Source: Patescibacteria group bacterium
Lineage (GTDB): Bacteria > Patescibacteriota > Minisyncoccia > Phycocordibacterales > DATDSR01
NCBI GenBank assembly: GCA_038062165.1
Contig: JBBTXQ010000018.1
Span: forward strand, 1-58,776
DNA length: 58,776 bases
Direction: 5' to 3'
Shown in pieces: positions 706-43,387 of this stretch. A model generated the notes under the pieces. It saw nothing but the letters and a program-made list of their open reading frames with translations. It was not told the DNA's origin and searched no databases. The translations under genes were made by a program, and so were the position numbers. Numbering within the stretch: position 1 is the first letter of the stretch; every line of letters begins with the position of its first letter.

Positions 706-1029
706 TTAGGTTACTTTCTCGTGTCGTTCGCTCAACTCTCGTCGAGCCCTGACAGCGTCGCGGATCTTGCCCATCGCTTCCGCGACAAGCTTTTCCACCT
801 CGTTCGCTGAAATGCTCACGAACGTGGCATGTTCGATCTGAACGGGGCTCATCCGTTCGCCCGACTCAAGGCCTTCCTGTAGGGTGAGAGCCTTTTGTTC
901 ACGATCGGTGAGACCGGCTTCCCGCATCAGATTCGCGAGCGCCTCCTCTACTACGTGTTCTTTTGCCCCAGACGTGCCGATGCCTAGTCCTCGCAAGAAC
1001 GCGCATCGGTTGCTGTGCGCTGTTTTCAT
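706..1029 (-). CDS. Hypothetical protein (GC-richer orphan, 107 aa)
   Basis: Upstream sequence is cacgAAGGAGGAcggc then ATG, a strong SD. I recognise no family. It is antisense to the str operon. Confidence 0.55.
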   Translation of the reverse strand: MKTAHSNRCAFLRGLGIGTSGAKEHVVEEALANLMREAGLTDREQKALTLQEGLESGERMSPVQIEHATFVSISANEVEKLVAEAMGKIRDAVRARRELSERHEKVT

Positions 1030-1182
1030 GCCGTCCTCCTTCGTGAGTGTTCTGGATGGTTCTGGGTTTTGAAACGACTCGGATTAATGATTGTGACGTT
1101 GTTTTGGTATTAATTTCTTGAATTAAGTTGAATTGGCAAATTAGCAAAAGAGGTGGGCCTGCAAGTTTCGCAGGCCCTGATT

Positions 1183-1617
1183 CTACGAGTAGACTGGCAC
1201 ACGCACTCGTTCGCGCTTGCTCTCGAATTTAATCAAGGCGGCTCTTTGGACCTCCCCGTTTTGAGCATCGTCGTTGATGATGCTGTCGAGGATAATCGGA
1301 CTGAGTTCGCCAGTTTCGATTGCCACAAGGCAAAGCTCTCTGTCTTTCGAGCGAATCATCTGACCAAGTAGCCACGAAACCTTGTTGACCTCAAAGGCTT
1401 GCGACAGTCCGCCTGAGAGCAAGATTGATTTTGCCCTCTCTGGAATAAATCGACAGAACTCACCGTAAACATCCTCATCGTGATTGCGCGGTGGCTTCCA
1501 GCAAAGAACGGCTGAGAAGAGTTGGTGTCGGAGCCATGGCACCCCGCGTTTCATTCCAAGGCGATAAACGAAATTCGCCACTTTCAATTGCAACTCCTTG
1601 CGCAAGATCCTTCTCAT
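1183..1617 (-). CDS. Hypothetical protein (GC-richer orphan, 144 aa)
   Basis: Upstream sequence is gcgaAAGGAGGGtcttagt then ATG. A hairpin (gggcctgc-aagtttc-gcaggccc, 1154-1178) follows the stop. I recognise no family. Confidence 0.55.
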
Positions 1618-1650
1618 ACTAAGACCCTCCTTTCGCTAGACTACCAGAGC

Positions 1651-1679
1651 TTGACTTGTTTTACCAGTTCATATAAGAT
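1651..1679 (+). promoter_or_regulatory. Candidate sigma70-type promoter for tuf
   Basis: TTGACT (1651-1656), 17-nt spacer, TAAGAT (1674-1679). It sits just downstream of the inserted antisense genes. Confidence 0.45.
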
Positions 1680-1794
1680 GCTCGTACTTGTAATTTCGGT
1701 AGGCAAGCTTGCCTGCCGCAGGCAGGTTGGCATTTATAAGTTAGTTAAGACCTCCAATACCCTCTCGGGCAATGAGGCAAAAATAAATAAACAT

Positions 1795-2997
1795 ATGGCA
1801 GAAGCATTTGATCGTTCTAAGCCACACTTAAACGTTGGCACAATTGGTCATGTTGACCACGGCAAGACTACTCTCACCGCGGCTATTCTTCATGTCCTCG
1901 ACATGAATAAGGCGGCAGGTTACGGTGCGCGAGTTGAAGGTATTGACGCAATCGACAAGGCGCCAGAAGAAAAAGCTAGAGGTATTACTATTTCTCTCCA
2001 CCACAGCGAGTACTGGACACCCAAGCGCCACTACGCACACATCGACGCTCCGGGTCATGCCGACTTCATCAAGAACATGATCACCGGTGCCGCCCAGATG
2101 GATGGTGCCATTATCGTGGTAGCCGCCACTGACGGTGTCATGCCTCAAACTCGCGAGCACATCTTACTTGCTCGCCAGGTAGGTGTGAATAAGATCATAG
2201 TCTTCTTAAACAAAGTGGACATGGTTGATGACGCTGAAATGGTTGGTCTCGTAGAAGAGGAAGTGCGCGAACTCTTGACTAAGTATAAATACGACGGTGC
2301 TAACACCCCAATTATCAAAGGCTCAGGCTTGAAGGGCCTTGAAGCTAAGAGTCTTGACGATGAGTGGGCCAAGAAGATTCTTGAACTTGTAGACACTATC
2401 GATACTTATTTCCCAGAACCAGCTCGCGAAATCGACAAGCCATTCTTACTCCCAATTGAAGACATTTTCTCGATTGAAGGTCGCGGTACGGTTGTCACGG
2501 GAAGAATTGAGAGAGGAAAAGTGAAAGTGGGCGAGGAAGTTGAACTCGTTGGTTTCAATCCAACAACTAAGACTACCGTGACCGGCATCGAAATGTTCAA
2601 CAAGCAACTCGATGAAGGCATGGCCGGAGATAACGCCGGTATCCTCCTGCGAGGCTTGAAGAAAGAAGACATAACTCGAGGCCAGGTTATTGCCAAAACA
2701 GGTTCTGTTACCCCTCATACTGATTTCGAAGCTGAAGTTTATGTGCTGACTAAAGAAGAGGGTGGCCGTCACACGCCGTTCTTCAAAGGTTACAAGCCAC
2801 AGTTCTACATTCGCACTACCGATGTGACAGGTGAGATTACTTTGCCAGAGGGCACGGAGATGGTTATGCCCGGCGATACTATTAAAGTGAATGTCAAGCT
2901 CGTGGCCCCTGTAGCCCTTGAAAGCGAACAGCGCTTCGCTATCCGCGAAGGTGGCAAGACAGTTGGGGCAGGTGTAGTAACCAAGATCAATGCCTAG
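1795..2997 (+). CDS. tuf: Elongation factor Tu
   Basis: [38 protein letters not shown] and NKVD GTPase motifs; 400 aa from the ATG at 1795. Confidence 0.95.
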
Positions 2998-3382
2998 TGC
3001 AACTAAAGAAAAAGTTAGTTCTCCTAAAACAAAGAGGACTTCTAAGGCGACCAAGACAGCCGCGGCAAGTTCCGGCATTGGCAAACTGCGAATTAAAGTA
3101 AGCGCTTATGAGCATAAAGTTCTGGACATGAGTGTGCGACAAATCGTTGATACAGCTATCAGACACGAAGGCGAAGTACACGGACCAGTGCCACTGCCCA
3201 CAGAGATCACGCGCTACACAGTAAATAGGGGAGCATTCATAGACAAGAACTCGCGCGAGCAGTTCGAGATGCGAGTACACAAGAGAACACTCGATATCGT
3301 AAATCCTTCCGGAAAAATAATCGAAGCACTTACGAATATCGAACTGCCTTCCGGAGTTGGAATAGATCTGAAAATGATGTAG
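2990..3382 (+). CDS. rpsJ: 30S ribosomal protein S10 with a Lys-rich N-terminal extension of about 30 aa
   Basis: [14 protein letters not shown]...[32 protein letters not shown]. It overlaps the tuf stop by 8 nt. No alternative start lies nearer the conserved core. Confidence 0.9.
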
Positions 3383-3390
3383 GTTTTTTT

Positions 3391-3978
3391 ATGAAATTTT
3401 TAATCGGCCGAAAACAGAATATGGCCCAGATCTTCGATGAGAAGGGCCGAGTAACAGGAGTGACTATTGTTAAACAAGAGCCGCTTAAAGTTACTCAAAT
3501 TAAAACTCTTGAGAAGGATGGCTATGTTGCCACCCAAGTTGGCTTCGGCGTGCAAAAAGAATCCAGAGTAAATAAACCCCAAAGAACTAAAGGTCTGTTC
3601 AAGGGTTTCAAAGAAATTAAAGAAGTTAGTGAGCTCGAAAATTTCCAAGTGGGAGATACTGTCGAGGTTAGTGGCACTAGCAAAGGCAAAGGCTTCCAAG
3701 GGGTGGTCAAGCGACATGGCTTCCACGGTGGCAGACGCAGTCACGGCCAGAAGCATTCAGAACGTGAGCCCGGCTCGATAGGTGGCGCAGGTCGCGCCGG
3801 TGGCCGTGTGGCCAAGGGCATGCGCATGGCCGGCCGCATGGGAGGTGATCGCATTACTGTAAAAAATTTAAAAGTTATCGCAATTGAAGGTGACGACCTG
3901 TATCTGTCGGGCGCCGTGCCCGGGCGCAGAGGCACTTTGTTAGAAATCCGAGGCACGAAGCACGAAACACGAAACTAA
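3391..3978 (+). CDS. rplC: 50S ribosomal protein L3
   Basis: GRKQNMAQIFDEKG...GTSKGKGFQGVVKRHGFHGG, in S10-operon order. Confidence 0.95.
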   Translation: MKFLIGRKQNMAQIFDEKGRVTGVTIVKQEPLKVTQIKTLEKDGYVATQVGFGVQKESRVNKPQRTKGLFKGFKEIKEVSELENFQVGDTVEVSGTSKGKGFQGVVKRHGFHGGRRSHGQKHSEREPGSIGGAGRAGGRVAKGMRMAGRMGGDRITVKNLKVIAIEGDDLYLSGAVPGRRGTLLEIRGTKHETRN

Positions 3979-3979
3979 T

Positions 3980-4609
3980 ATGAACGCGCCACTATACAAT
4001 CAAGAGGGAAAAGATTTAGGGAAGTTGGAGCTTCCGGATAAGATTTTTGGTTTGCCGTGGAATGCTGATCTGGTTCATCAAGTTGTAGTCAGTCAGCAGG
4101 GTAATGCTCGCACTCCTGTGGCGCACGCTAAGGGTAGAGGCGAAGTGCGTGGTGGCGGTAAAAAACCTTGGAAGCAGAAGGGTACTGGCCGTGCTCGTCA
4201 CGGTTCTATTCGCTCACCACTATGGGTAGGAGGTGGCGTAACTCATGGGCCAACAAAAGAGAAAATTTATGCGCGCAAAATAAACAAGAAGATGGCCGCC
4301 AAGGCTTGGGCCACTATTGTCTCGCAAAAGTTGCGAGATGGGGAGGTATTTTTCATAGACAAATTAACATTGTCTGGTATAAAAACTAAATCAGCTTCAA
4401 GTATTATTTCTAACCTATCCAAAAAGTTAGATAAAAAAGAACTCGTTTACAAAAAAGGTAACAGAGCCCTGATTGCTTTGGGCAAGCGCGATAACGTGGT
4501 CGAGAAGAGCTTCCGTAATTTACCAGCAGTTAAAATGATAGAGTGTAGAAATATGAACGCACTCGTTGCCATGACTTACAAATTCATTTTCTTTGTAGAC
4601 TATAAGTAA
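3980..4609 (+). CDS. rplD: 50S ribosomal protein L4
   Basis: HAKGRGEVRGGGKKPWKQKGTGRARHGSIRSPLWVGGG, in operon order. Confidence 0.95.
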   Translation: MNAPLYNQEGKDLGKLELPDKIFGLPWNADLVHQVVVSQQGNARTPVAHAKGRGEVRGGGKKPWKQKGTGRARHGSIRSPLWVGGGVTHGPTKEKIYARKINKKMAAKAWATIVSQKLRDGEVFFIDKLTLSGIKTKSASSIISNLSKKLDKKELVYKKGNRALIALGKRDNVVEKSFRNLPAVKMIECRNMNALVAMTYKFIFFVDYK

Positions 4610-4906: not shown

Positions 4907-5755
4907 ATGAAGAAATACAAGCCAACAACTAAATCTCGCCGCGCTATGACTGGTATTAATTACCGGGAAGTTCTGTCGGGTGACAGGCCACACAAGGCTC
5001 TTGTCTCGGGTGGCAAGCGTAGGCAAGGCCGGGCCAGTTGGGGCAGGATCACTATGCGTCACAAGGGCGGCGGTTCTAAACGCTTGTTTAGAGATGTTGA
5101 TTTTATGTACGCCAAGAAGGATATCCCTGCCCGTATTGAGACACTTGAATACGATCCAAACAGAAGCGGCTTCGTAGGACGTGTCGTTTATGCTGACGGT
5201 GAACGAAGTTATGTGCTCCTGCCCACGACACTTAAAGTTGGTGATTCATTTGTAACGGGCGAGAAAGTGGCTATTAAAGTGGGCAACCGCTTACCTCTTA
5301 AAAATATTCCTACTGGCACATTTGTTTTTAATATAGAGTTGCAACCAAAGGGTGGTGCCAAACTTGTGCGCTCTGCAGGCGTCTTTGCTGAAGTACTTGC
5401 CCGTGACGGCGGTTTCGTTAACGTACGCATGCCCAGTTCCGAAATACGCAAGATTGATGAGAACGCCTGGGCCTCGATTGGTTCTGTTTCGAATCCAGAA
5501 AACATGCTGGTTAACTATGGCAAAGCCGGCAGATCACGCTGGAAAGGCATCCGTCCCACAGTCCGTGGCACAGCTATGAACCCAGTAGATCATCCATACG
5601 GCGGAGGTGAAGGTCGCCAGGGCCGTGGTACCAGACGTGCCAAAACGCGTTGGGGCAAACCGGTAGGCAAAGGCCAAAAGTCCCGCCGCCCCAAGAAGTA
5701 TAGCAACGTATTTATAGTCTCAAGACGCCGCGTCGGCAAGAAGAAAACTGTCTAG
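4907..5755 (+). CDS. rplB: 50S ribosomal protein L2
   Basis: GRITMRHKGGGSKR...TVRGTAMNPVDHPYGGGEGR. Confidence 0.95.
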   Translation: MKKYKPTTKSRRAMTGINYREVLSGDRPHKALVSGGKRRQGRASWGRITMRHKGGGSKRLFRDVDFMYAKKDIPARIETLEYDPNRSGFVGRVVYADGERSYVLLPTTLKVGDSFVTGEKVAIKVGNRLPLKNIPTGTFVFNIELQPKGGAKLVRSAGVFAEVLARDGGFVNVRMPSSEIRKIDENAWASIGSVSNPENMLVNYGKAGRSRWKGIRPTVRGTAMNPVDHPYGGGEGRQGRGTRRAKTRWGKPVGKGQKSRRPKKYSNVFIVSRRRVGKKKTV

Positions 5756-5764
5756 TAATTGAGA

Positions 5765-5795
5765 AACGGCCCGACAATTGCCGGGCCGTTCTTTG
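5765..5795. terminator. Hairpin between rplB and the convergent orphan gene
   Basis: aacggcccg-acaattgc-cgggccgtt followed by cttt. Confidence 0.6.
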
Positions 5796-5810
5796 ATCGC
5801 GGGCGACGGG

Positions 5811-6095
5811 TCACATCCCCATCCCTCCGTAAGGGGGAGGGTGGTAGGGTGACCTATAGGCTTCCTCGTTGGCCTTCTTTATCGCTGCGGCAATCCGGAG
5901 CTGCTCGTCTTCTGGCAGTCCAGAGAACCACACCTCGAGCTCGCGCACTGCGCGCATGCCGAGGTAGACAAGGGCGACCCCGCCGAGAGCGAGAACAACC
6001 CAGAATCGCCACCAGCTCTCCACGTTGTAGAACGCCCCGGTAAGTGTCCCCACAGTTACCGCGGCGGCAAGCACGACGTAGCCGATTGTTCTCAT
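5811..6095 (-). CDS. Hypothetical small membrane protein (GC-rich orphan, 94 aa)
   Basis: Two hydrophobic helices (IGYVVLAAAVTVGTLTGAFY, FWVVLALGGVALVYLGM). A purine-rich SD-like AAGGGGG lies upstream. A hand count gives 35/60 G+C in 5811-5870. Confidence 0.55.
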   Translation of the reverse strand: MRTIGYVVLAAAVTVGTLTGAFYNVESWWRFWVVLALGGVALVYLGMRAVRELEVWFSGLPEDEQLRIAAAIKKANEEAYRSPYHPPPYGGMGM

Positions 6096-6448
6096 GACCT
6101 ATGGACCCCCTTCCCTTTCCAAACAGCTGCGCACCCGTTTGAGTATAACGCAACAGAGCCCTCGCTGGTAGTGAGAGCTCTGTCCAGCTTAGGGCATGGA
6201 TTAAGAAGTTCATATTTGTTGTGGATTGGTTGGTAATATCGATTTTCGCTTGACAGGTTATTTATTTGGGTATAGTCTAGATATACATGAATCGTTTTGT
6301 CATAACTTCCCGATCGATTTGCATTGAGACCTCAACTAAGATGTGGGGTATGTTTTCCCATTTCTATTTTAAACAACATATGCGCGGGTAATTAATACAT
6401 AAATTAGTAAGCAAGAACCCCGCGCAGAAATGTGTGGGGTTCTTCTTT

Positions 6449-6815
6449 TCCCGAGGGGAGGGATCATCAGTACTGATCTCCCCCCGGGGCAAGTGCTCTC
6501 ACGACACCAATTGGTGCGTGATAGGTCTTTGAGGCTAATCCCGACATTCTGTCGGGACGCCCGATCAAAAACACAGTTTTTGATTTAGGGAGGTCTTTAT
6601 GTGCGTGAGGCGTTGTGAGTTGCCGTGGGTGCCCGGTTCGTCTGACCCGTGTAGCATCCCGGAGCATCTCCGAGGCAGTGCCCCAAGCGAACCTGGCCCT
6701 GACTCCAGAGAGGAGGAGGTTTCCCGGCGTGAGGACGGGTTGTCTACACCCGGTCCAGCCTATTTCCCCGAGGGTGCTCTCTAGCTTCACCCCCTCCGAC
6801 ATCTGTCGGAGGGGC
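6449..6815. repeat. GC-rich cluster of local hairpins/palindromes (non-coding)
   Basis: Hairpins at about 6449-6489, 6500-6520, 6539-6558 (tcccgaca-ttc-tgtcggga), 6562-6586, 6734-6752 and 6789-6812 (cccctccgaca-tc-tgtcggagggg). The string tttccc(c)gaggg...gtgctctc recurs at both ends. Confidence 0.4.
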
Positions 6816-6858
6816 AACTTGCAAATTATTAGGTTAAGAGTAGTTTTATGGACATGAG

Positions 6859-6936
6859 TCCCGTTAGAAGCTTCGGGATTCACGCCACCATGCTACATAT
6901 TATCAACGCCAAATATAGTGTTAGCTTCTAACGGGA
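6859..6936 (+). repeat. Start-codon hairpin element, copy 1 (13-bp stem TCCCGTTAGAAGC / GCTTCTAACGGGA)
   Basis: Perfect 13-bp stem. The 3' arm ends on the A of the pepA ATG. ATGAG flanks both sides (6854-6858 and 6936-6940). Confidence 0.6.
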
Positions 6937-8294
6937 TGAGAATAATTAACAAAGACAAGTTAGGGAAAGGCCTGCCTGCCGGCAGGCAGGAGTACAAAAA
7001 GGCTGATTTTAAGGACGCAAATAGCTTGCGTAAATTTGTTTTGGCTGTACGCAAGGCTGTGGCTGATGCCAAGAAAGACAAGATGAAAAAAGTGGCAGTT
7101 ATCCTGAAAGAGATTCACAAGTTCGGGATTGGCGAGAGAGAATTGGGTGAGATAATTGCTCGCGAGGTACTGATTGCTGATTATGAATTTACTAAATACT
7201 TGAGCAAGCCAAAAGAGGGCTGGAGCTTTATTTCTGGATTTGCTCTTATCGGTAAAGTTAGTAAGGAGTTTAAGGTGGGAATTGAGAGGGGCAAAATAAT
7301 TGCGGGAGAAGTTAACATGACTCGCGAGCTGGCTAATACTCCGGGTGGCGAGATGGTTCCCAAGACTCTTGCCTTAGCCGCTCGAGAAGCAGTTAAAGAT
7401 TTGCCCAACACAAAAATAACAGTACTTGGCAAAAAGGAACTTGAGAAGCTGGGGATGGGAGCAGTGCTCGGTGTAGCCAAGGGCTCGCCAGAAGAGCCGC
7501 AATTTATTGTTGTGGAGTATCGCCCCCTAGCCCCCTCTTATGATAAGAGGGGGAACAAAGGGGGAGATATCGTTCTGGTTGGCAAAGGCGTGACCTTCGA
7601 TACTGGGGGACTCAATCTCAAGCCTACTGATGGCATTAACGACATGCACTTGGATATGTCCGGTGGTGCGGCTGTGATACACGCTGTTGCACTTGCTGCT
7701 AAACTTGGTGTGAAGAAAAATATAGTGGCGCTTGTGCCCGCGGTTGAGAACATGCCCGGAGGTTACTCATATAGACCCGGCGATATTCTTAAGTCGTTAT
7801 CTGGCAAAACTATTGAGATCAAAAATACTGATGCTGAAGGCAGAGTAATTCTCGCCGACGCTCTCACCTACGCCAAGAAGTTTAACCCAAGATTAGTTAT
7901 TGATGTCGCAACTCTAACTGGCGCGGCTTGTGTCGCCCTTGGCGAACGCGCCTCGGCTATCTTCACGCGTGATCAAGAGCTTGAAAAGTTGACGAGGGAA
8001 CTGGGAGAGAAGTCAGGCGATTATGTTTGGCCGATGCCCATGTGGGAAGAGTATGAGAGTGAAGTGAAGGGAACATTCGGCGATGTAGCTAATCTTGGCA
8101 AGAAGGGCAGGATGGGCGGAGCAATCTCGGGCGCAATGTTCTTACTGCAATTCACCAAAGATTACCCCAAAAGTACAAAGTGGATGCACATAGACATGGC
8201 CCCCACAATGACAGCTACAGACGACGAGTTTCTAGCCAAAGGAGCCAAAGGCAGTCCCGTCAAGCTCCTGCTTGCCTTGATTGAGAGTTACTGA
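6936..8294 (+). CDS. pepA: Leucyl aminopeptidase (M17 family)
   Basis: VLVGKGVTFDTGGLNLKP and NTDAEGRVILADAL M17 signatures. I prefer the ATG at 6936 over the GTG at 6918 because the same cttctaacgggATG junction precedes rplV and rplN. Confidence 0.9.
   Translation: MRIINKDKLGKGLPAGRQEYKKADFKDANSLRKFVLAVRKAVADAKKDKMKKVAVILKEIHKFGIGERELGEIIAREVLIADYEFTKYLSKPKEGWSFISGFALIGKVSKEFKVGIERGKIIAGEVNMTRELANTPGGEMVPKTLALAAREAVKDLPNTKITVLGKKELEKLGMGAVLGVAKGSPEEPQFIVVEYRPLAPSYDKRGNKGGDIVLVGKGVTFDTGGLNLKPTDGINDMHLDMSGGAAVIHAVALAAKLGVKKNIVALVPAVENMPGGYSYRPGDILKSLSGKTIEIKNTDAEGRVILADALTYAKKFNPRLVIDVATLTGAACVALGERASAIFTRDQELEKLTRELGEKSGDYVWPMPMWEEYESEVKGTFGDVANLGKKGRMGGAISGAMFLLQFTKDYPKSTKWMHIDMAPTMTATDDEFLAKGAKGSPVKLLLALIESY
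7518..7569. repeat. 52-nt nested palindromic element inserted in frame in pepA
   Basis: tatcgccccct-ag-CCCCCTCTTA-tg-ATAAGAGGGGGA-acaa-agggggagata. All four blocks (44 nt) are identical to recG 45293-45342. Confidence 0.7.
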
Positions 8295-8317
8295 AAGTTT
8301 GTAGAGAGACATTCGTC

Positions 8318-8548
8318 GTGTATAATATGAAAGTGAAAACACTTAACTGGACAAACGTAATAAAGAAATACAAGGGACTATGGGTTGGATTCAAGAACGA
8401 CAACAGGACCGTTATCGCTTCTGGTAGAACTCCAGCTGAAGTTATTAAGAAGGCAAAAAGTAGCGGATATGAAAATCCAATACTTTTCAGAGTGCCCAGC
8501 AGGCTAGTTGCCTTCGTTGGGATAATAGATGAAATTTCCATACGCTAA
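8318..8548 (+). CDS. DUF5678-like small protein (the ATG at 8327 is a possible start)
   Basis: KYKGLWVGFKNDNRTVIASGRTPAEVIKKAKSSGYENPILFRVP fits the KGKWVAI...a-helix...RVP pattern of DUF5678 proteins, as recalled from memory. Confidence 0.65.
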   Translation: MYNMKVKTLNWTNVIKKYKGLWVGFKNDNRTVIASGRTPAEVIKKAKSSGYENPILFRVPSRLVAFVGIIDEISIR

Positions 8549-8936
8549 ATTTGGTAGAGTTGGGAGTGAAATTATTAAACGCCCCGTTGTTCCAATTGAA
8601 GTTAAATTTGAAGATGAAACCGTCCTTTACGATGCCTTGATAGACTCCGGAGCGGATATTTGTATATTCGATGCTGCAATTGGCGAACAACTTGGTATCA
8701 ACATAATTTCTGGAATCCCAATTGTTTTTGGTGGAGCTGAATATTCCAAGGGTTCTGCGGCATATTTGCATCAAGTCAAAATAAAGATTAAAAATAAAGA
8801 AATAAAAACGCAAGTTGCCTTTACATACAACATCGCTAACCATGGTCATGGCCTTTTGGGGCAAAAAGGGTTTTTCGATAAATTTGCAATCAAATTTGAT
8901 TATTCCAATGATGTTGTAGATATTAGTTCCAGATAA
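8529..8936 (+). CDS. Retropepsin-like (clan AA) aspartic protease
   Basis: Catalytic LIDSGAD motif plus downstream GLLGQKGFF. 135 aa. It overlaps the preceding small gene by 20 nt. Confidence 0.75.
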   Translation: MKFPYAKFGRVGSEIIKRPVVPIEVKFEDETVLYDALIDSGADICIFDAAIGEQLGINIISGIPIVFGGAEYSKGSAAYLHQVKIKIKNKEIKTQVAFTYNIANHGHGLLGQKGFFDKFAIKFDYSNDVVDISSR

Positions 8937-8939
8937 AAT

Positions 8940-8990
8940 ACCAAAGGCAGCCCGGTCAAACTCCTACTTACCATCATTGAGAACTTTTAG
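8940..8990 (+). pseudogene. Displaced duplicate of the pepA 3' end
   Basis: It translates to TKGSPVKLLLTIIENF* against the pepA C-terminus AKGSPVKLLLALIESY* (8244-8294). Several of the nucleotide differences are synonymous. Confidence 0.6.
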
Positions 8991-9033
8991 GCCTTTTTTT
9001 GAAAAGAAATTAGCCCGCGATGTTTGGTCGGGG

Positions 9034-9288
9034 CTAAAGGTTCCCGGTCTCGTCTTTGATTTTCTCCATTATTCGCACTGGAATCGCATTTTCCTTAAGA
9101 CAGTCACACTTATCAAGTTGTGTGCCAGCAAGTTTGCTGGCATGTGGTAATTGCCATTCCATATTAAGCGTTTGGCGGTCTCTAATTCGCAACAAAGGCA
9201 AGTGCCTTACGCCGTTGCAAACGATGTAGTGATAGCACTCACCGGCCTGATAAGCTAGGAATACCCGTATTTCCGAATTTCCTTCCAT
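9034..9288 (-). CDS. Hypothetical protein (orphan, 84 aa)
   Basis: aaGAGGAGGAGGT lies immediately upstream of the ATG. A hairpin and T-run follow the stop. I recognise no family. Confidence 0.5.
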   Translation of the reverse strand: MEGNSEIRVFLAYQAGECYHYIVCNGVRHLPLLRIRDRQTLNMEWQLPHASKLAGTQLDKCDCLKENAIPVRIMEKIKDETGNL

Positions 9289-9395: not shown

Positions 9396-9740
9396 ATGTC
9401 ACGATCGTTATACAAAGGCCCTTACGTTGACCCACGTGTTACTAAAAAAATAGTGGGGAAAGATCCGATGAAAACCGGCCTTATTAAGACTTGGGCTAGA
9501 GATAGCGTAATTAGTCCTGACATGGTTGGTTTTGCCTTCGGTGTGCATAACGGTAAAGACTTTATTGAGGTGAAAGTAGTTGAGGAGATGGTTGGACATA
9601 GACTGGGCGAATTTTCCCAGACTCGCAAATTTACTAAACATGGTGGCAAGATGCAGAAGGAGCAAGAGTTAAAGGCTAAAGAAGCCGAGATTGCCTCGGC
9701 CAAATCTGCCAAAGAAGCAGGCGAAGCCGCAAAAAAGTAA
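9396..9740 (+). CDS. rpsS: 30S ribosomal protein S19 with a Lys/Ala/Glu-rich C-terminal tail
   Basis: SRSLYKGPYVD...GHRLGEFSQTRKFTKHGG, followed by a low-complexity tail of about 30 aa. Confidence 0.9.
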   Translation: MSRSLYKGPYVDPRVTKKIVGKDPMKTGLIKTWARDSVISPDMVGFAFGVHNGKDFIEVKVVEEMVGHRLGEFSQTRKFTKHGGKMQKEQELKAKEAEIASAKSAKEAGEAAKK

Positions 9741-9760: not shown

Positions 9761-9841
9761 TCCCATTAGAAGTATGTCTCAATTAAGTCACTGCGATATG
9801 TCAGGCGTATATACAATTAACGTAAGTAACTTCTAACGGGA
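9761..9841 (+). repeat. Start-codon hairpin element, copy 2
   Basis: TCCCATTAGAAGT...ACTTCTAACGGGA. ATGAA flanks both sides (9756-9760 and 9841-9845). A uORF runs 9756-9836. Confidence 0.6.
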
Positions 9842-10173
9842 TGAAAGCGAGTTTAAACAATTATAGGCAAGCTCCACGAAAAGTCAGATTAGTAACAGAT
9901 CTTATTAAGGGCAAGAGCGTAGAGAAAGCCAAAACAGAACTTGCGCATCTCTCTAAACGCGCTTCTACGCCTATTCTTAAACTTTTAAATTCAGCGATTG
10001 CTAACTCAAATTTAAATTTAAATGAGAGTGATAAAAATAACTTGTTTATAAAAAGTATTAGCGTAGACAAAGGGATTGTCTTGAAAAGGAGTATGCCACG
10101 CGCTCATGGTCGCGCATTTCCAATACACAAGCACACGTCGCACATCAAGTTAGAATTAGCCAGAAAATCATGA
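9841..10173 (+). CDS. rplV: 50S ribosomal protein L22
   Basis: NYRQAPRKVRLVTDLIKGKSVEKA...MPRAHGRAFPIHKHTSHI. Confidence 0.9.
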   Translation: MKASLNNYRQAPRKVRLVTDLIKGKSVEKAKTELAHLSKRASTPILKLLNSAIANSNLNLNESDKNNLFIKSISVDKGIVLKRSMPRAHGRAFPIHKHTSHIKLELARKS

Positions 10174-10529
10174 GTCATACAGTACATCCATACGCACATA
10201 GATTAGGAATTTTGCGAGACTGGAAGAGTCGCTGGTTCGTGGCGCGCATCAAGAAGCCTCTTTACAGACAGAATTTGAAAGCCGATGTGATGTTGCGCGA
10301 GACACTTGAAAAAGAGTTGCGTGCTTTCCTTGTTGATTCTATCGAAATTGAAAGAGGAGAGAATTATTTGAGAGTGATAGTGAAAACTGCCAGACCGGGT
10401 TTGATAATTGGTCGCTCCGGTGAAGGTTCAAATAAGCTCAAAGAGACTATTGTAAAAAGATTAAGAAAGTTAGGCGCCAATATTCCAAGAGATGTGCGTT
10501 TGCAGATTGAAGAGGTGCGCTCTCCCTAG
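10170..10529 (+). CDS. rpsC: 30S ribosomal protein S3, N-terminal (KH) part, ending at an in-frame TAG
   Basis: VHPYAHRLGILRDWKSRWF...ARPGLIIGRSGEGSNKL...QIEEVRSP then TAG at 10527-10529. Confidence 0.85.
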   Translation: MSHTVHPYAHRLGILRDWKSRWFVARIKKPLYRQNLKADVMLRETLEKELRAFLVDSIEIERGENYLRVIVKTARPGLIIGRSGEGSNKLKETIVKRLRKLGANIPRDVRLQIEEVRSP

Positions 10530-11541: not shown

Positions 11542-11621
11542 TCCCATTAGAAGTATAGTTATATAATGTCAATAAACATGTCAAATTTACACACAATTAA
11601 CGTAAGTAACTTCTAACGGGA
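11542..11621 (+). repeat. Start-codon hairpin element, copy 3
   Basis: It has the same arms as copy 2 and the shared internal block ACAATTAACGTAAGTAACTTCTAACGGG. It starts right after the rpsQ TAA and ends on the A of the rplN ATG. Confidence 0.6.
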
Positions 11622-11989
11622 TGATTCAACCACGAGCAATAGTAAAAATAGCTGACAACACCGGAGCCAAAATTGGGCGTATTTTCAAAGTGCTCGGCGG
11701 TTCTAAACGCAGATACGCTCGCGTAGGCGATTTGGTTGTGCTATCTGTCCAAACAGCCGAACCTCGTAAGATGGCCAAGAAGAAGGAAGTGCATAGGGCC
11801 GTGGTTGTGAGGCAAAGGGCCAACATGCGCCGTTCTGACGGATCTTATATCAGGTTTGATGAGAATGCAGTTGTGCTAGTTGACGTTAAGAATGAACCTA
11901 AAGGAGCACGTGTTTTCGGTCCTGTGCCTAGAGAGTTAACAGAAATGGGATTCCAGAAGATAGCCTCACTTGCGCCAGAGATTGTATAA
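11621..11989 (+). CDS. rplN: 50S ribosomal protein L14
   Basis: [17 protein letters not shown]...[10 protein letters not shown]. Confidence 0.95.
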
Positions 11990-12780: not shown

Positions 12781-12813
12781 TCTACTATAATTTTTACAGA
12801 GGAGGACCCGGCC

Positions 12814-13017
12814 ATGTCTCTCCGATTTGCTGTGGAAATTCCAGAACCAACGCCCCGCAATGTGGTTACGACCACCCAGATGAAATGTGGTCATGTCCAC
12901 GAATGTCTGGGTGATGCCCATCAGGCGATCTGTGGTGCGTATGTATGCCGTGCTCATGATTACGTTCATCGCTTCTGCACGGCTACGTACTGCGTTGCCA
13001 GGATCCCCCAGACATAG
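12814..13017 (+). CDS. Hypothetical Cys/His-rich small protein (orphan, 67 aa)
   Basis: GAGGAGGA lies 7 nt upstream of the ATG, and the gene has its own terminator at 13045-13075. A hand count gives 31/60 G+C in 12814-12873 against 25/60 in rplX 12001-12060. Confidence 0.5.
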   Translation: MSLRFAVEIPEPTPRNVVTTTQMKCGHVHECLGDAHQAICGAYVCRAHDYVHRFCTATYCVARIPQT

Positions 13018-13044
13018 CGCGCAACACACTCACTCCAGCATGCC

Positions 13045-13075
13045 CCCGTAGCGGTTCGCCGCTACGGGTTTTTTA
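13045..13075 (+). terminator. Rho-independent terminator
   Basis: cccgtagcgg-ttcg-ccgctacggg followed by tttttt. Confidence 0.75.
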
Positions 13076-13120
13076 TTCACGCAAATTATGGTATAACCGA
13101 AGAAGGAGGATCTCCATAAA

Positions 13121-13324
13121 ATGAGAACCAGAACTCGCGGCAAATGGAAGTGCGGTGGAGTCTGCAAACGGATGCTAGAATCAAGTGACGTTCGCAATCT
13201 AACGAAATGCGGCAAGACAGTCTGTAACGACTGTTTCCCACGCCACAAGATCTGTCAGAGAGGCAAGTGCATGGCCGGTTCGCAAGCGGCCAGCCACGGC
13301 CACGAAAACGCCACCGGCGACTAG
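13121..13324 (+). CDS. Hypothetical Cys-rich (zinc-ribbon-like) small protein (orphan, 67 aa)
   Basis: AAGGAGGA upstream. CGGVC...C..C and CNDC...C pairs. A hairpin aatgttcgagcc-ccg-gcctcgaacatt follows the stop. Confidence 0.5.
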   Translation: MRTRTRGKWKCGGVCKRMLESSDVRNLTKCGKTVCNDCFPRHKICQRGKCMAGSQAASHGHENATGD

Positions 13325-13391
13325 CCACCCAAAATGTTCGAGCCCCGGCCTCGAACATTTCCCCGTGCGGGTAGGAAGAAAGGAGAACTAG

Positions 13392-13628
13392 ATGACTCCA
13401 GAGGAAAGTCAGGCTTTACGAGATAGGGCCCTCCAGTTGTTCGCGGAAAAGAGAAATATGGATGCCGACGATCTTTCTAACAGGCTTGGTCAGACCAGTC
13501 ACGTTGCTCTGGTTGTAATCAAGCAATTGGAGAAAGATAATTTTGTTCGCGTCTCGCCCAAGCAACCCGGCGAGCATCATCCAGACGAGTTAAGTCAGTA
13601 CAGTGTAGTCTACGGAATCTCGCTTTAG
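13392..13628 (+). CDS. Hypothetical small protein, possibly winged-helix (orphan, 78 aa)
   Basis: AAAGGAG lies 6 nt upstream of the ATG. A hairpin ccccgtagtaa-gcttcgc-ttactacgggg follows the stop. Confidence 0.55.
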   Translation: MTPEESQALRDRALQLFAEKRNMDADDLSNRLGQTSHVALVVIKQLEKDNFVRVSPKQPGEHHPDELSQYSVVYGISL

Positions 13629-13683
13629 GTTTCACTTCTTTACCCCGTAGTAAGCTTCGCTTTACTACGGGGTTGCTCTTTTT

Positions 13684-13741
13684 GGGCTAAATCCGCCTCT
13701 GGCGGATCGCCCGAACATTACTTTTGCAATGTTTTAGGGGG
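13684..13741 (+). repeat. Two-hairpin GGGCTAAATC...AATGTTTTAGGGG element, copy a
   Basis: gggctaaATCCGCCtctGGCGGATcgcccgAACATTacttttgcAATGTTttagggg. It is homologous to 28101-28165, and both stems carry compensatory changes. Confidence 0.55.
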
Positions 13742-13752
13742 TGTGATAGGAT
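13724..13752 (+). promoter_or_regulatory. Candidate promoter restarting rpsZ/spc transcription
   Basis: TTGCAA, 17-nt spacer, TAGGAT, with the same gtgaTAGGATa box as at 9343-9348. Confidence 0.35.
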
Positions 13753-13843
13753 AAAGGGGTTCTAAGAATAGTCTCGCTAGACTGCCTGGCAGGTCCGGGT
13801 AAGTGGCGGGACCAAAATTATTCTTCAATTTCATTCAGAACAA

Positions 13844-14029
13844 GTGGCAAAAAAGAGCACAATTGCACGGTCGAAACGGACGCCTAAGTACAAAAGTCGC
13901 GTGGTGCGACGTTGTTTCAGATGCGGCCGCAAACGCGCTTATATGCGTGACTTTGACATGTGTAGGATATGTTTCCGCGAGGCGGCAAATGAAGGACGTA
14001 TCCCCGGCATTAGAAAAGCATCGTGGTAG
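13844..14029 (+). CDS. rpsZ: 30S ribosomal protein S14, type Z (zinc-binding); GTG start
   Basis: MAKKSTIARSKRTPKYKSRVVRRCFRCGRKRAYMRDFDMCRICFRE; 61 aa with CxxC...CxxC. Confidence 0.9.
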   Translation: MAKKSTIARSKRTPKYKSRVVRRCFRCGRKRAYMRDFDMCRICFREAANEGRIPGIRKASW

Positions 14030-14053
14030 TTCGACTGCGCTCACTATAAATAA
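14027..14053 (+). promoter_or_regulatory. Conserved 27-nt intergenic motif, copy 2
   Basis: TAGTTCGACTGCGCTCACTATAAATAA. It starts at the rpsZ stop codon, and the rpsH ATG follows 3 nt later. Confidence 0.5.
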
Positions 14054-14056
14054 ACT

Positions 14057-14446
14057 ATGGATCAAATTTCTGACATGTTAATTAGAATCAAGAATGCCGG
14101 TAGCGCCCGGCAGGATTCTACAATTGTGCCTTATTCTAAACTTAAGTTTGAGATTGCGAATGTTCTATTGAGTGAAAGTTATATCAAATCTTTTTCGGTT
14201 AAAGGTAAAAAAGTACGCAAGCACATAGAAGTAGAAATTGCTTATCGAGACGATGGCTCTGTTCGCATAACTGATGTTAATCGCATTTCTAAATTATCAA
14301 GACGCGTTTATCTTGGTGCTAAAGATATCAGACCCGTTAAACAGGGCACTGGCCTGCTCGTGCTCTCTACCCCCAAGGGTATCCTGTCAGGCAGAGATGC
14401 CCGCAAGCAGATGGTCGGAGGTGAAGCGTTATTTAGTATCTGGTAG
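14057..14446 (+). CDS. rpsH: 30S ribosomal protein S8
   Basis: DQISDMLIRIKNAGSAR...GTGLLVLSTPKGILSGRDARK. Confidence 0.95.
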   Translation: MDQISDMLIRIKNAGSARQDSTIVPYSKLKFEIANVLLSESYIKSFSVKGKKVRKHIEVEIAYRDDGSVRITDVNRISKLSRRVYLGAKDIRPVKQGTGLLVLSTPKGILSGRDARKQMVGGEALFSIW

Positions 14447-14470
14447 TTCGACTACGCTCACTATAAATAA
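14444..14470 (+). promoter_or_regulatory. Conserved 27-nt intergenic motif, copy 3
   Basis: TAGTTCGACTACGCTCACTATAAATAA. It starts at the rpsH stop codon, and the rplF ATG follows 2 nt later. Confidence 0.5.
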
Positions 14471-40746: not shown

Positions 40747-40819
40747 GGGCGTGTAGCTCAGTTGGTAGAGCGTTCGTCTTATACACGGAGGGTTCTTGGT
40801 TCGAGTCCAAGCGGGTGGA
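40747..40819 (+). pseudogene. tRNA-Ile(UAU)-like gene with a non-complementary acceptor stem
   Basis: The D-arm, anticodon arm (TTCGT-CTTATAC-ACGGA) and T-arm (CTTGG-TTCGAGT-CCAAG) all fold. However, the 5' GGGCGTG faces the 3' CGGGTGG, giving 3 mismatches. Its first 25 nt are identical to the tRNA at 43315. Confidence 0.5.
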
Positions 40820-43314: not shown

Positions 43315-43387
43315 GGGCGTGTAGCTCAGTTGGTAGAGCACGGAGCTTATACCTCCGCGGTCCCTGGTTCGAGCCCAGGCACGCCCA
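43315..43387 (+). tRNA. tRNA-Ile, anticodon UAU
   Basis: 73-nt cloverleaf: GGGCGTG/CACGCCC acceptor, GCTC-AGTTGGTA-GAGC, CGGAG-CTTATAC-CTCCG, CCTGG-TTCGAGC-CCAGG. CCA is not encoded. Confidence 0.85.

Follow-up and report, generated by a model that had tools for sequence, protein, structure and literature searches.

A DUF5678-aspartic protease cassette inserted at the 3' end of pepA in a Patescibacteria genome and bracketed by a duplicated gene end

The pepA locus and its two gene ends

The DNA analysed here (the window, 58,776 nucleotides (nt) in all) comes from an uncultured groundwater bacterium of the Patescibacteria group and contains two versions of the 3' end of pepA, between which lies a short cassette encoding a DUF5678 small protein and a retropepsin-like aspartic protease. 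The source names of the pepA homologues likewise point to Patescibacteria / Paceibacterota. The target gene, pepA, lies on the plus strand at 6936-8294, encodes an M17 leucyl aminopeptidase (Pfam Peptidase_M17, 3.9e-109), and is intact. Its start is the ATG at 6936, which yields the 452-amino-acid (aa) product on record (100% match to P0001); the listing of open reading frames (ORFs) opens this frame at GTG 6918. In six lineages, pepA sits between rplB and rpsS, among ribosomal-protein genes. The last 16 codons of pepA and its TGA stop codon form the left direct repeat (copy 1, 8244-8294, plus strand), which is the working end of the gene. This is followed by the inserted cassette (8295-8939, plus strand, 645 nt), which comprises a promoter-like site and two overlapping genes, and then by the right direct repeat (copy 2, 8940-8990, plus strand), a relic pepA end of 16 codons and a TAG stop codon.

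The initial annotation of this DNA had pointed out that the last 51 nt of pepA recur in diverged form after the cassette, and had set a similarity exceeding chance as the test beforehand. That similarity was found with both 300 and 400 shuffles. The segments 8244-8294 and 8940-8990 align without gaps and are identical at 37 of 51 bases, and identity across the core of the repeat (8245-8286 and 8941-8982) is 83%. The best other ungapped match to the same 51-mer in the 58.8-kb window is 30/51, and in 300 shuffles of the whole window the best 51-mer match had a mean of 27.2, a standard deviation of 0.9, and a top value of 31. Likewise, a local alignment of one cassette flank against the other gave a score of 24.5, compared with 7.8 ± 1.0 for 400 shuffles. 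The translations are AKGSPVKLLLALIESY for copy 1 and TKGSPVKLLLTIIENF for copy 2, each closed by a stop that sits at the same codon. At the codon level, the two copies show four synonymous-only differences and five conservative replacements, and 8 of the 14 base differences fall at third codon positions. The similarity extends from 8244/8245 up to the stop codon, and the flanking sequence on either side is unrelated. Counting the window, four assemblies of this strain, drawn from three samples, have this arrangement, and one of them, L022, differs from the window by a single mismatch across 8544 bases, which rules out an assembly artefact.

We compared the locus with pepA loci from a set of eight lineages that share 69-80% protein identity. 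A second pepA end is present only in the window and in L021, and every other lineage examined has a pepA locus that lacks the DUF5678-protease cassette. The claim that the cassette is an insertion is borne out by these cassette-free loci and by the empty site in L077, a distant relative of another species (approximately 75-80% pepA identity). In L077, a single pepA end is followed by a 49-nt hairpin spacer after the stop codon, a convergent 88-aa ORF, and rpsS. The same series is found in the window downstream of copy 2. The native spacer there (8991-9033, 43 nt) reaches from copy 2 to the convergent ORF and contains a hairpin at 9002-9025 (AGCCCGCGATGTTTGGTCGGGGCT) that is present in the centroid fold; the L077 hairpin at the equivalent position is GGCGAC-TTTT-GGTCGCC. 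The spacer of the window is followed by a small ORF of 84 aa on the minus strand (9034-9288) that belongs to no family and is called as a gene in L022, and then by rpsS (9396-9740, plus strand; ribosomal protein S19, matched by Ribosomal_S19 in L022), where the ribosomal-protein series resumes. The ORF at 9034-9288 and the 88-aa ORF of L077 are alike in position and orientation, share 27% identity (E = 5e-6), and have the motifs CNG..H and C.CLKE in common. By this comparison, the convergent ORF is part of the ancestral pepA-rpsS interval and lies outside the insertion. Given that the L077 arrangement is matched downstream of copy 2, the window corresponds to the L077 layout plus 696 nt, that is, the cassette and one extra pepA end. 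An explanation at the RNA level was rejected: 8925-9045 folds with a stability no greater than that of shuffled sequence (z = 0.57), and no Rfam family was found in the window between 5700 and 9400.

The second lineage with a duplicated pepA end carries a different cassette. In L021 and L071-76 (seven contigs, one lineage), a RelB/DinJ-RelE/StbE pair (NCBIfam, 7.7e-7 and 1.3e-7, respectively, in L021) lies 3' of pepA and is followed by a second pepA end. The repeat in L021 is 78 nt long with 93.6% identity; it starts at codon -14 and extends 33 nt beyond the stop codon. Counted from the pepA stop, L021 has duplicated -43 to +33, and the window -50 to 0; thus, the two stretches overlap and their junctions differ. 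No same-species empty site was found for the RelB/RelE insertion, which is carried by all seven of the seven contigs with P0009 or P0010. Given that this unrelated cassette did likewise at the same pepA end, the behavior is not peculiar to the DUF5678-protease pair.

The cassette, its proteins and its other sites

The cassette is poorer in guanine plus cytosine (GC) than its surroundings, with a GC fraction of 0.371 compared with 0.481 for pepA and 44.5% for the window, and GC at third codon positions is 0.28 for the protease gene and 0.50 for pepA. A promoter-like site, read by eye as TTGTAG-16 nt-TATAAT (8299-8326, plus strand), lies directly 5' of the DUF5678 gene. It was missed by a consensus scan because TTGTAG fits only three of the six bases of the -35 hexamer. 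The closest cassette, in L065, has TTGAGA-16-TATAAT at the same aligned position.

The initial annotation had described two ORFs between the copies, and profile searches agree with it on both. The first (8327-8548, plus strand) encodes a 73-aa DUF5678 protein from ATG 8327 (Pfam PF18929, 5.6e-8), with GTG 8318 and GTG 8333 as alternative starts, and shares 75% identity with both P0242 and P0243. The DUF5678 family comprises 660 representative clusters, nearly all of them stand-alone proteins of 60-90 aa. A structural model of the window protein (predicted local distance difference test (pLDDT) score of 78) has the order alpha-beta-beta-alpha-beta and has no match in the PDB with an E value below 1. 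The second ORF (8529-8936, plus strand) encodes a 135-aa protein that matches Pfam Asp_protease_2 (1.2e-5) with a score of 26.4, which is above the cut-off of 24.3, and that matches TIGR03698 at 2.8e-5, which is under the curated cut-off. The D-S-G-A motif is intact (residues 39-42, nt 8643-8654), and D39, S40, G41, and A42 are invariant across 52 protease homologues. The model of this protein has a pLDDT of 92.4, and its top Foldseek matches in the PDB are the HIV-1, EIAV, and SIV proteases, the protease domain of Ddi1, and Rickettsia APRc (E values of 4e-5 to 5e-4). Judged by its DSGA motif and predicted fold, the product of 8529-8936 is a retropepsin-like (clan AA) aspartic protease. The two genes overlap by 20 nt in the window and by 4 nt (ATGA) in most homologues. 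The protease stop and copy 2 share a reading frame, with TAA AAT between them, which is a one-in-three chance, and no support was found for read-through of the protease stop into copy 2.

We found the DUF5678-protease pair at 13 loci in species-representative genomes and at 40 loci in metagenome contigs. The two genes are always found as a pair or as a decayed pair, and they occupy approximately 40 distinct sites in Patescibacteria; one locus is in an archaeal metagenome-assembled genome. Cassettes lie next to tRNA genes (L002, L006, L009, L011, L036, and L045), between rpsG and fusA (L004), and 3' of 16S rRNA (L065-70 and L082-89). The closest copy of the window cassette (protease 61% and DUF5678 75% identical) lies 3' of 16S rRNA in GCA_036517655.1, the closest sampled genome, whose pepA locus is without the cassette. 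Homology between cassettes at the DNA level begins approximately 40-70 nt before the DUF5678 start codon and stops exactly at the protease stop codon. These limits indicate that the moving unit would be the promoter and two genes, approximately 650-700 nt, in which neither a recombinase nor an attC-like site could be accommodated. Likewise, profile searches found no transposase or integrase families among the ORFs of the window cassette or next to the repeats. On the evidence of its distribution, the DUF5678-protease pair is a mobile two-gene module, as the initial annotation had proposed for an element with no visible integrase or transposase: it occupies many sites, and a different one in the closest sampled genome. 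A viral origin was considered and dropped, given that protease relatives were absent from the viral contigs of IMG/VR and there were no PHROG matches.

Direct repeats flanking the cassette were sought at 36 independent loci by comparing the 200-nt stretches to its left and right, with 400 shuffles for each locus. Against a chance expectation of 0.2 loci, significant repeats (P ≤ 0.005) were found at eight of the 36, namely the window, L040, L035, L033, L025, L052, L065, and L002. Five of these (the window, L035, L040, L052, and L065) have a common geometry in which 40-92 nt separate the end of the left copy from the start codon and 3-23 nt separate the stop codon from the beginning of the right copy. 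The repeats are 15-100 nt long, and their sequences are unrelated to one another and have no shared core. Their copies can be closely similar, with 24 of 26 bases identical in L040 and 22 of 23 in L035. The proposal of site-specific insertion does not survive these comparisons, since both targets and repeats differ from locus to locus. A candidate shared target motif, CCAAAGGCAG, which opens the repeat and is also found in a hairpin loop 5' of pepA in L014, was dropped as chance, neither the window nor the fetched loci showing any enrichment for it. The string CCAAAG that opens the right repeat in L065 was counted with this dropped motif.

Some flanking sequences recur in other ways. In L045, the 3' end of a tRNA-Tyr gene, CGGCGCACAAA, is repeated just 3' of the cassette. 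A 16-mer that resembles a tRNA 3' end, GTCCCAGACGGCGCAC, is found to the left of the cassette in L013 (approximately 1915-1940) and L048, and to its right in L045 (approximately 4415-4434). L011 (approximately 5640-5735) and L040 (3713-3757), which are otherwise not syntenic, share left-hand flanking sequence over approximately 100 nt. This sharing of left-side sequence is seen in the one cassette subfamily that has the palindrome GTCAATATTGAC at its promoter, and one repeat copy may travel with the cassette.

Decayed cassettes were observed in L082 (4002-4293), L013/L057, and L061-L063. In these, DUF5678 is kept and most of the protease gene is deleted; in L082, the DUF5678 ORF is fused directly onto the last approximately 30 codons of the protease gene. 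Loss of the protease with retention of DUF5678 is the pattern expected if the protease is the harmful partner.

Other repeats and neighboring features

Several further features were recorded near the locus and near other cassettes. A hairpin element of approximately 85 nt is present in three copies in the window (6860-6939, 9762-9844, and 11543-11624). It reads CCC(G/A)TTAGAAG, approximately 55 nt of intervening sequence, and then CTTCTAACGGG followed directly by ATGA. Its 3' arm runs into the start codons of pepA, rplV, and rplN, it has no Rfam match, and it may represent an intergenic repeat of the ribosomal-protein series that is regulatory or mobile. A 30-nt repeat, TGGTAGTTCGACT(G/A)CGCTCACTATAAATAA, is found at 14024-14053 and 14441-14470 with 97% identity, directly 5' of the ORFs at 14057 and 14473, which are probably rpsH (S8) and rplF (L6) by their position in the series. 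The ribosomal-protein series is broken by two GC-rich stretches of approximately 1 kb, one at 5760-6850 (up to 59% GC), between rplB and pepA, and one, judged by eye, at 12800-13800, between rplE and a probable rpsN (S14). Neither matches Rfam, and any ORFs within them are short or doubtful. Within rpsC (ribosomal protein S3), the window has an in-frame TAG at 10527-10529 (peptide ...EEVRSP*SHAQ), a codon that is GAG (Glu) in L022 and all relatives. Since this TAG is the sole mismatch between the window and L022 in 8544 nt, an error of sequencing or assembly, or else a rare variant, is the probable explanation. Two tRNA-like sequences farther along the window (40747-40812 and 43315-43380) are 76% identical, and the first of these matches Rfam only over model positions 6-65, with the lower score of 46.9 bits.

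In relatives, the rplB-pepA interval holds toxin-antitoxin genes of the ParE-like and nucleotidyltransferase types (ParE at 3019-3480 in L015; a nucleotidyltransferase and NTase_sub_bind pair at 2624-3332 in L080). We found no convincing flanking repeats around either of these upstream of pepA. Toxin-antitoxin genes also occur near cassettes elsewhere, namely PemK/MazF and a HicA/HicB-like pair, the latter recognized by eye only (L033 3814-4206 and L012 518-1029). In L082, the 16S rRNA gene upstream of the cassette (899-3700) is split by insertions with LAGLIDADG endonuclease genes, and Rfam reports a group II intron domain there. In L065, a tRNA gene on the minus strand (5649-5721), just 3' of the closest cassette relative, is flanked by its own diverged partial duplicates, with 83% identity for the 3' part (5524-5553/5648-5677) and 92% for the 5' part (5687-5724/5792-5829). 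Given these tRNA fragments, relic gene fragments are seemingly common in these genomes.

Origin of the second pepA end

The pattern of differences between the two copies bears directly on how the second copy arose. When 14 random substitutions were introduced, an open frame together with a BLOSUM score equal to or above the observed one was obtained in 0.05-0.24% of trials. We then polarised the changes with outgroups and reconstructed an ancestor for neutral simulation. This places 3-5 changes, nearly all of them silent, on the copy 1 branch, and 10-12 on the copy 2 branch. Under neutral simulation, changes as conservative as those on the copy 2 branch have a probability of P = 0.003-0.005, which falls to approximately 0.001 when the stop must be kept as well. 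These simulations indicate that copy 2 accumulated most of its differences as coding sequence, in agreement with the earlier suggestion that it was once coding. Because its changes are too conservative for neutral decay, the two ends in the window probably derive from two pepA alleles. Copy 1 is typical of its clade, with 35 of 48 bases identical to both L077 and L014.

The ribosomal-protein genes around the locus also have mixed affinities. Between 3980 and 12254 of the window, L2 (94.6%), L22, L16, S17, L14, and L24 are closest to the L015 lineage, and L077 is the nearer relative for S19 (90.4%) and for the N-terminal half of S3 (84.9%). This mosaic similarity suggests recombination between these lineages near the pepA-rpsS junction.

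On balance, we favor a history in which a foreign, recombinase-free cassette came to lie in the end of pepA with duplication of the gene end, and in which the cassette was probably imported already flanked by a pepA end. By this account, the cassette would have entered the last 16 codons of pepA, the left copy would keep pepA whole, and the right copy would be a non-functional relic attached to the ancestral downstream context. The cassette would have been flanked by the pepA end in a related lineage and then imported by homology-guided recombination, for which two routes can be envisaged. An excised circle consisting of one repeat and the cassette could have entered by a single crossover, or a homologous anchor in pepA could have been combined with an illegitimate join approximately 50 nt before the resident stop codon. 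Either route would leave a resident pepA end next to a foreign one. The repeat, the insertion, the empty site, the recurrence and mobility of the cassette, and its lack of a recombinase gene are observed; the recombination route, which of the two copies is foreign, and an addiction or defence function are matters that we infer. The second route resembles homology-facilitated illegitimate recombination, which is known in naturally transformable bacteria and needs one homologous anchor and one illegitimate join, with no enzyme supplied by the element. Such a process could leave a resident fragment beside an imported homologue; neither a donor, nor an anchor breakpoint, nor junction microhomology was demonstrated for it here.

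Several observations weigh against importation of a cassette already flanked by a pepA end. Copy 2 has approximately twice as many derived changes as copy 1, four of them are found in no compared relative, and many are G-to-A or GC-to-AT; this excess also fits relaxed constraint after a duplication on the spot. The segment compared is only 16 codons long, and the reconstructed ancestor rests on distant relatives. None of the sampled relatives is a donor with a pepA-cassette junction or with a pepA allele that ends like copy 2, and none is closer to copy 2 than copy 1 is (29-34/48 compared with 36/48). Sliding-window identity to seven relatives gave no mosaic breakpoint in pepA, a test of little power because the relatives are all 69-80% identical. 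Copy 1 and copy 2 share no perfectly matching stretch longer than 10 nt, which would make crossing over of the RecA type within the repeat inefficient. In addition, 28 of the 36 cassette loci tested have no significant flanking repeat. The expectation that other copies of the cassette would also be flanked by duplicated gene ends stands in part, for some other loci with direct repeats, among them the repeated tRNA 3' end in L045. With respect to function, neither cassette protein belongs to a known toxin or antitoxin family in Pfam, NCBIfam, or PADLOC, and there is only a weak match to the PADLOC candidate PDC-M52B (2.4e-4).

The strongest competing explanation, which we regard as a real but clearly less probable alternative, is a long target duplication made on the spot in the lineage of the window. 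The cassette would have inserted once, and approximately 50 nt of pepA would have been duplicated into identical copies, for example through fill-in of staggered breaks or through template switching, after which the left copy would have been maintained by selection and the right copy would have decayed. The cases in the literature take this form: insertion with long target duplication is known for restriction-modification gene complexes (Furuta, Abe and Kobayashi 2010, PMC2853133), and that paper cites Nobusato et al. 2000 for it. In the published cases, the insert is short (<20 kb) and has no mobility genes, and the direct repeats, which are 30 to >400 bp long with copies that are 90-100% identical, are single-copy at the empty site (PMC2853133). 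The repeats often span a start or stop codon such that the target gene survives, and insertions into operon-like structures also occur (PMC2853133). Most of the species concerned are naturally competent and the mechanism has not been established, although the authors proposed a cycle of insertion, amplification via the repeats, and release (PMC2853133).

The window resembles these cases in that its insert is short (645 nt) and without a mobility gene, its repeat exceeds 30 bp (47-51 nt, and 78 nt in L021), L077 provides an empty site with one repeat copy, and the repeat spans the stop codon and leaves pepA intact. It differs from them in that its two copies are only 73% identical and allele-like, whereas near-identity is seen in L021 (94%), L040, and L035, and these near-identical repeats themselves favor duplication on the spot. 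The cargo also differs, being a DUF5678-protease pair (RelB/RelE in L021), the hosts are Patescibacteria, and several of the repeats at cassette loci fall below the 30-bp threshold. For the window itself, duplication on the spot would account for the more derived and unique changes and the loss of GC in copy 2, as well as for the identity between the two copies (36/48), which slightly exceeds that of either copy with any relative (at most 35/48). Against it stand the conservative nature of the changes in copy 2, the predominance of third-position differences, and the termination of the similarity exactly at the stop codon. We consider a surrogate gene end brought by the cassette, as the initial annotation had suggested, somewhat more likely than duplication on the spot; this idea is plausible and is not separable from a target duplication that was made by insertion and later reshuffled between lineages.

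A recombinase acting in trans is an unlikely source of the arrangement. In such a scheme, the cassette would be a non-autonomous element with an att site that copies the 3' end of a gene, and it would be integrated site-specifically by an integrase encoded elsewhere, as for streptococcal cis-mobilisable elements. The consistent geometry of the repeats in five loci would fit this scheme, as would the several copies that abut tRNA 3' ends, the recurrence of the tRNA-Tyr end after the cassette in L045, the 16-mer shared by L013, L048, and L045, and the left-side sequence shared by L011 and L040. However, there is no recombinase in the cassette, the repeats vary in sequence and length with no shared core and no enrichment of the candidate motif, the RelB/RelE cassette uses different junctions at the same pepA end, and no cassette relative was found on viral contigs. 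Islands and prophages that target tRNA or tmRNA genes restore the 3' end of the gene from attP. The analogy drawn with them in the initial annotation holds for the outcome, in that the insert lies between two copies of a gene 3' end and the gene remains functional, and some cassettes lie directly 3' of tRNA genes. It fails for the means, since there is no tyrosine or serine integrase in or beside the cassette and no fixed target or core (pepA, downstream of 16S rRNA, tRNAs, and rpsG-fusA are all used), and the target in the window is protein-coding and the insert only 645 nt long. Finally, a match arising by chance, or a chimeric assembly of two strains living together such as metagenomic data and the co-occurrence of related strains in the same samples might produce, can be set aside as highly improbable given that no shuffle attained the observed identity, that conservation is in frame and codon-aware, that one structure with one mismatch in 8.5 kb is common to all of the same-strain assemblies, and that an analogous structure exists in the seven contigs of another lineage.

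The cassette also invites comparison with two other kinds of small gene module. Integron cassettes carry one or two genes and no recombinase, and toxin-antitoxin genes are common among their cargo. The DUF5678-protease cassette is likewise short and recombinase-free, but its flanking repeats are local target sequence, and neither IntI nor a cassette array was seen. The conserved DNA ends at the protease stop, which in the window lies 3 nt from the relic and leaves no room for attC; without an attC site, integron cassettes are excluded.

The likeness to type II toxin-antitoxin systems goes further. As in those systems, the genes are small, overlapping, and co-directional, they have their own promoter-like site with a palindrome in one subfamily, and they are patchily distributed over varied sites in neighborhoods rich in toxin-antitoxin genes. 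Decayed copies without the second gene occur, and a bona fide RelB/RelE pair shows the same insertion behavior. The difference is that neither protein is in a known family of this kind, such that the label rests on architecture and behavior. In the literature, DUF5678 was found only in one unrelated context, and the combination of a retropepsin-like protein with toxin-antitoxin systems was not found. To our knowledge, an aspartic protease acting as a toxin has not been described. By analogy, the cassette may be a selfish module of the addiction or defence type.

If importation of a cassette already flanked by a pepA end is correct, the known range of long target duplication would widen to include toxin-antitoxin-like cassettes as well as the reduced genomes of Patescibacteria, where intergenic space is scarce and a target-sparing mode of insertion would therefore have an obvious selective advantage. 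More speculatively, Patescibacteria, and perhaps DPANN archaea, might host a population of recombinase-free, addiction-type pairs that spread by capture of gene ends, with the pepA end as a preferred landing pad. Such a cassette would excise with one repeat copy, the 3' end of a host gene or tRNA, and would rely only on host recombination to re-enter, through homology, the orthologous gene end in another lineage. It would thus carry a surrogate gene end much like an integrase-borne island, and the pair would represent an undescribed type of addiction system. The DUF5678-protease pair is a candidate for a protease-based addiction or defence system, and the allele-like pepA ends, together with a pepA end shared by two unrelated cassettes, would offer a testable handle on how recombinase-free cassettes move between lineages.

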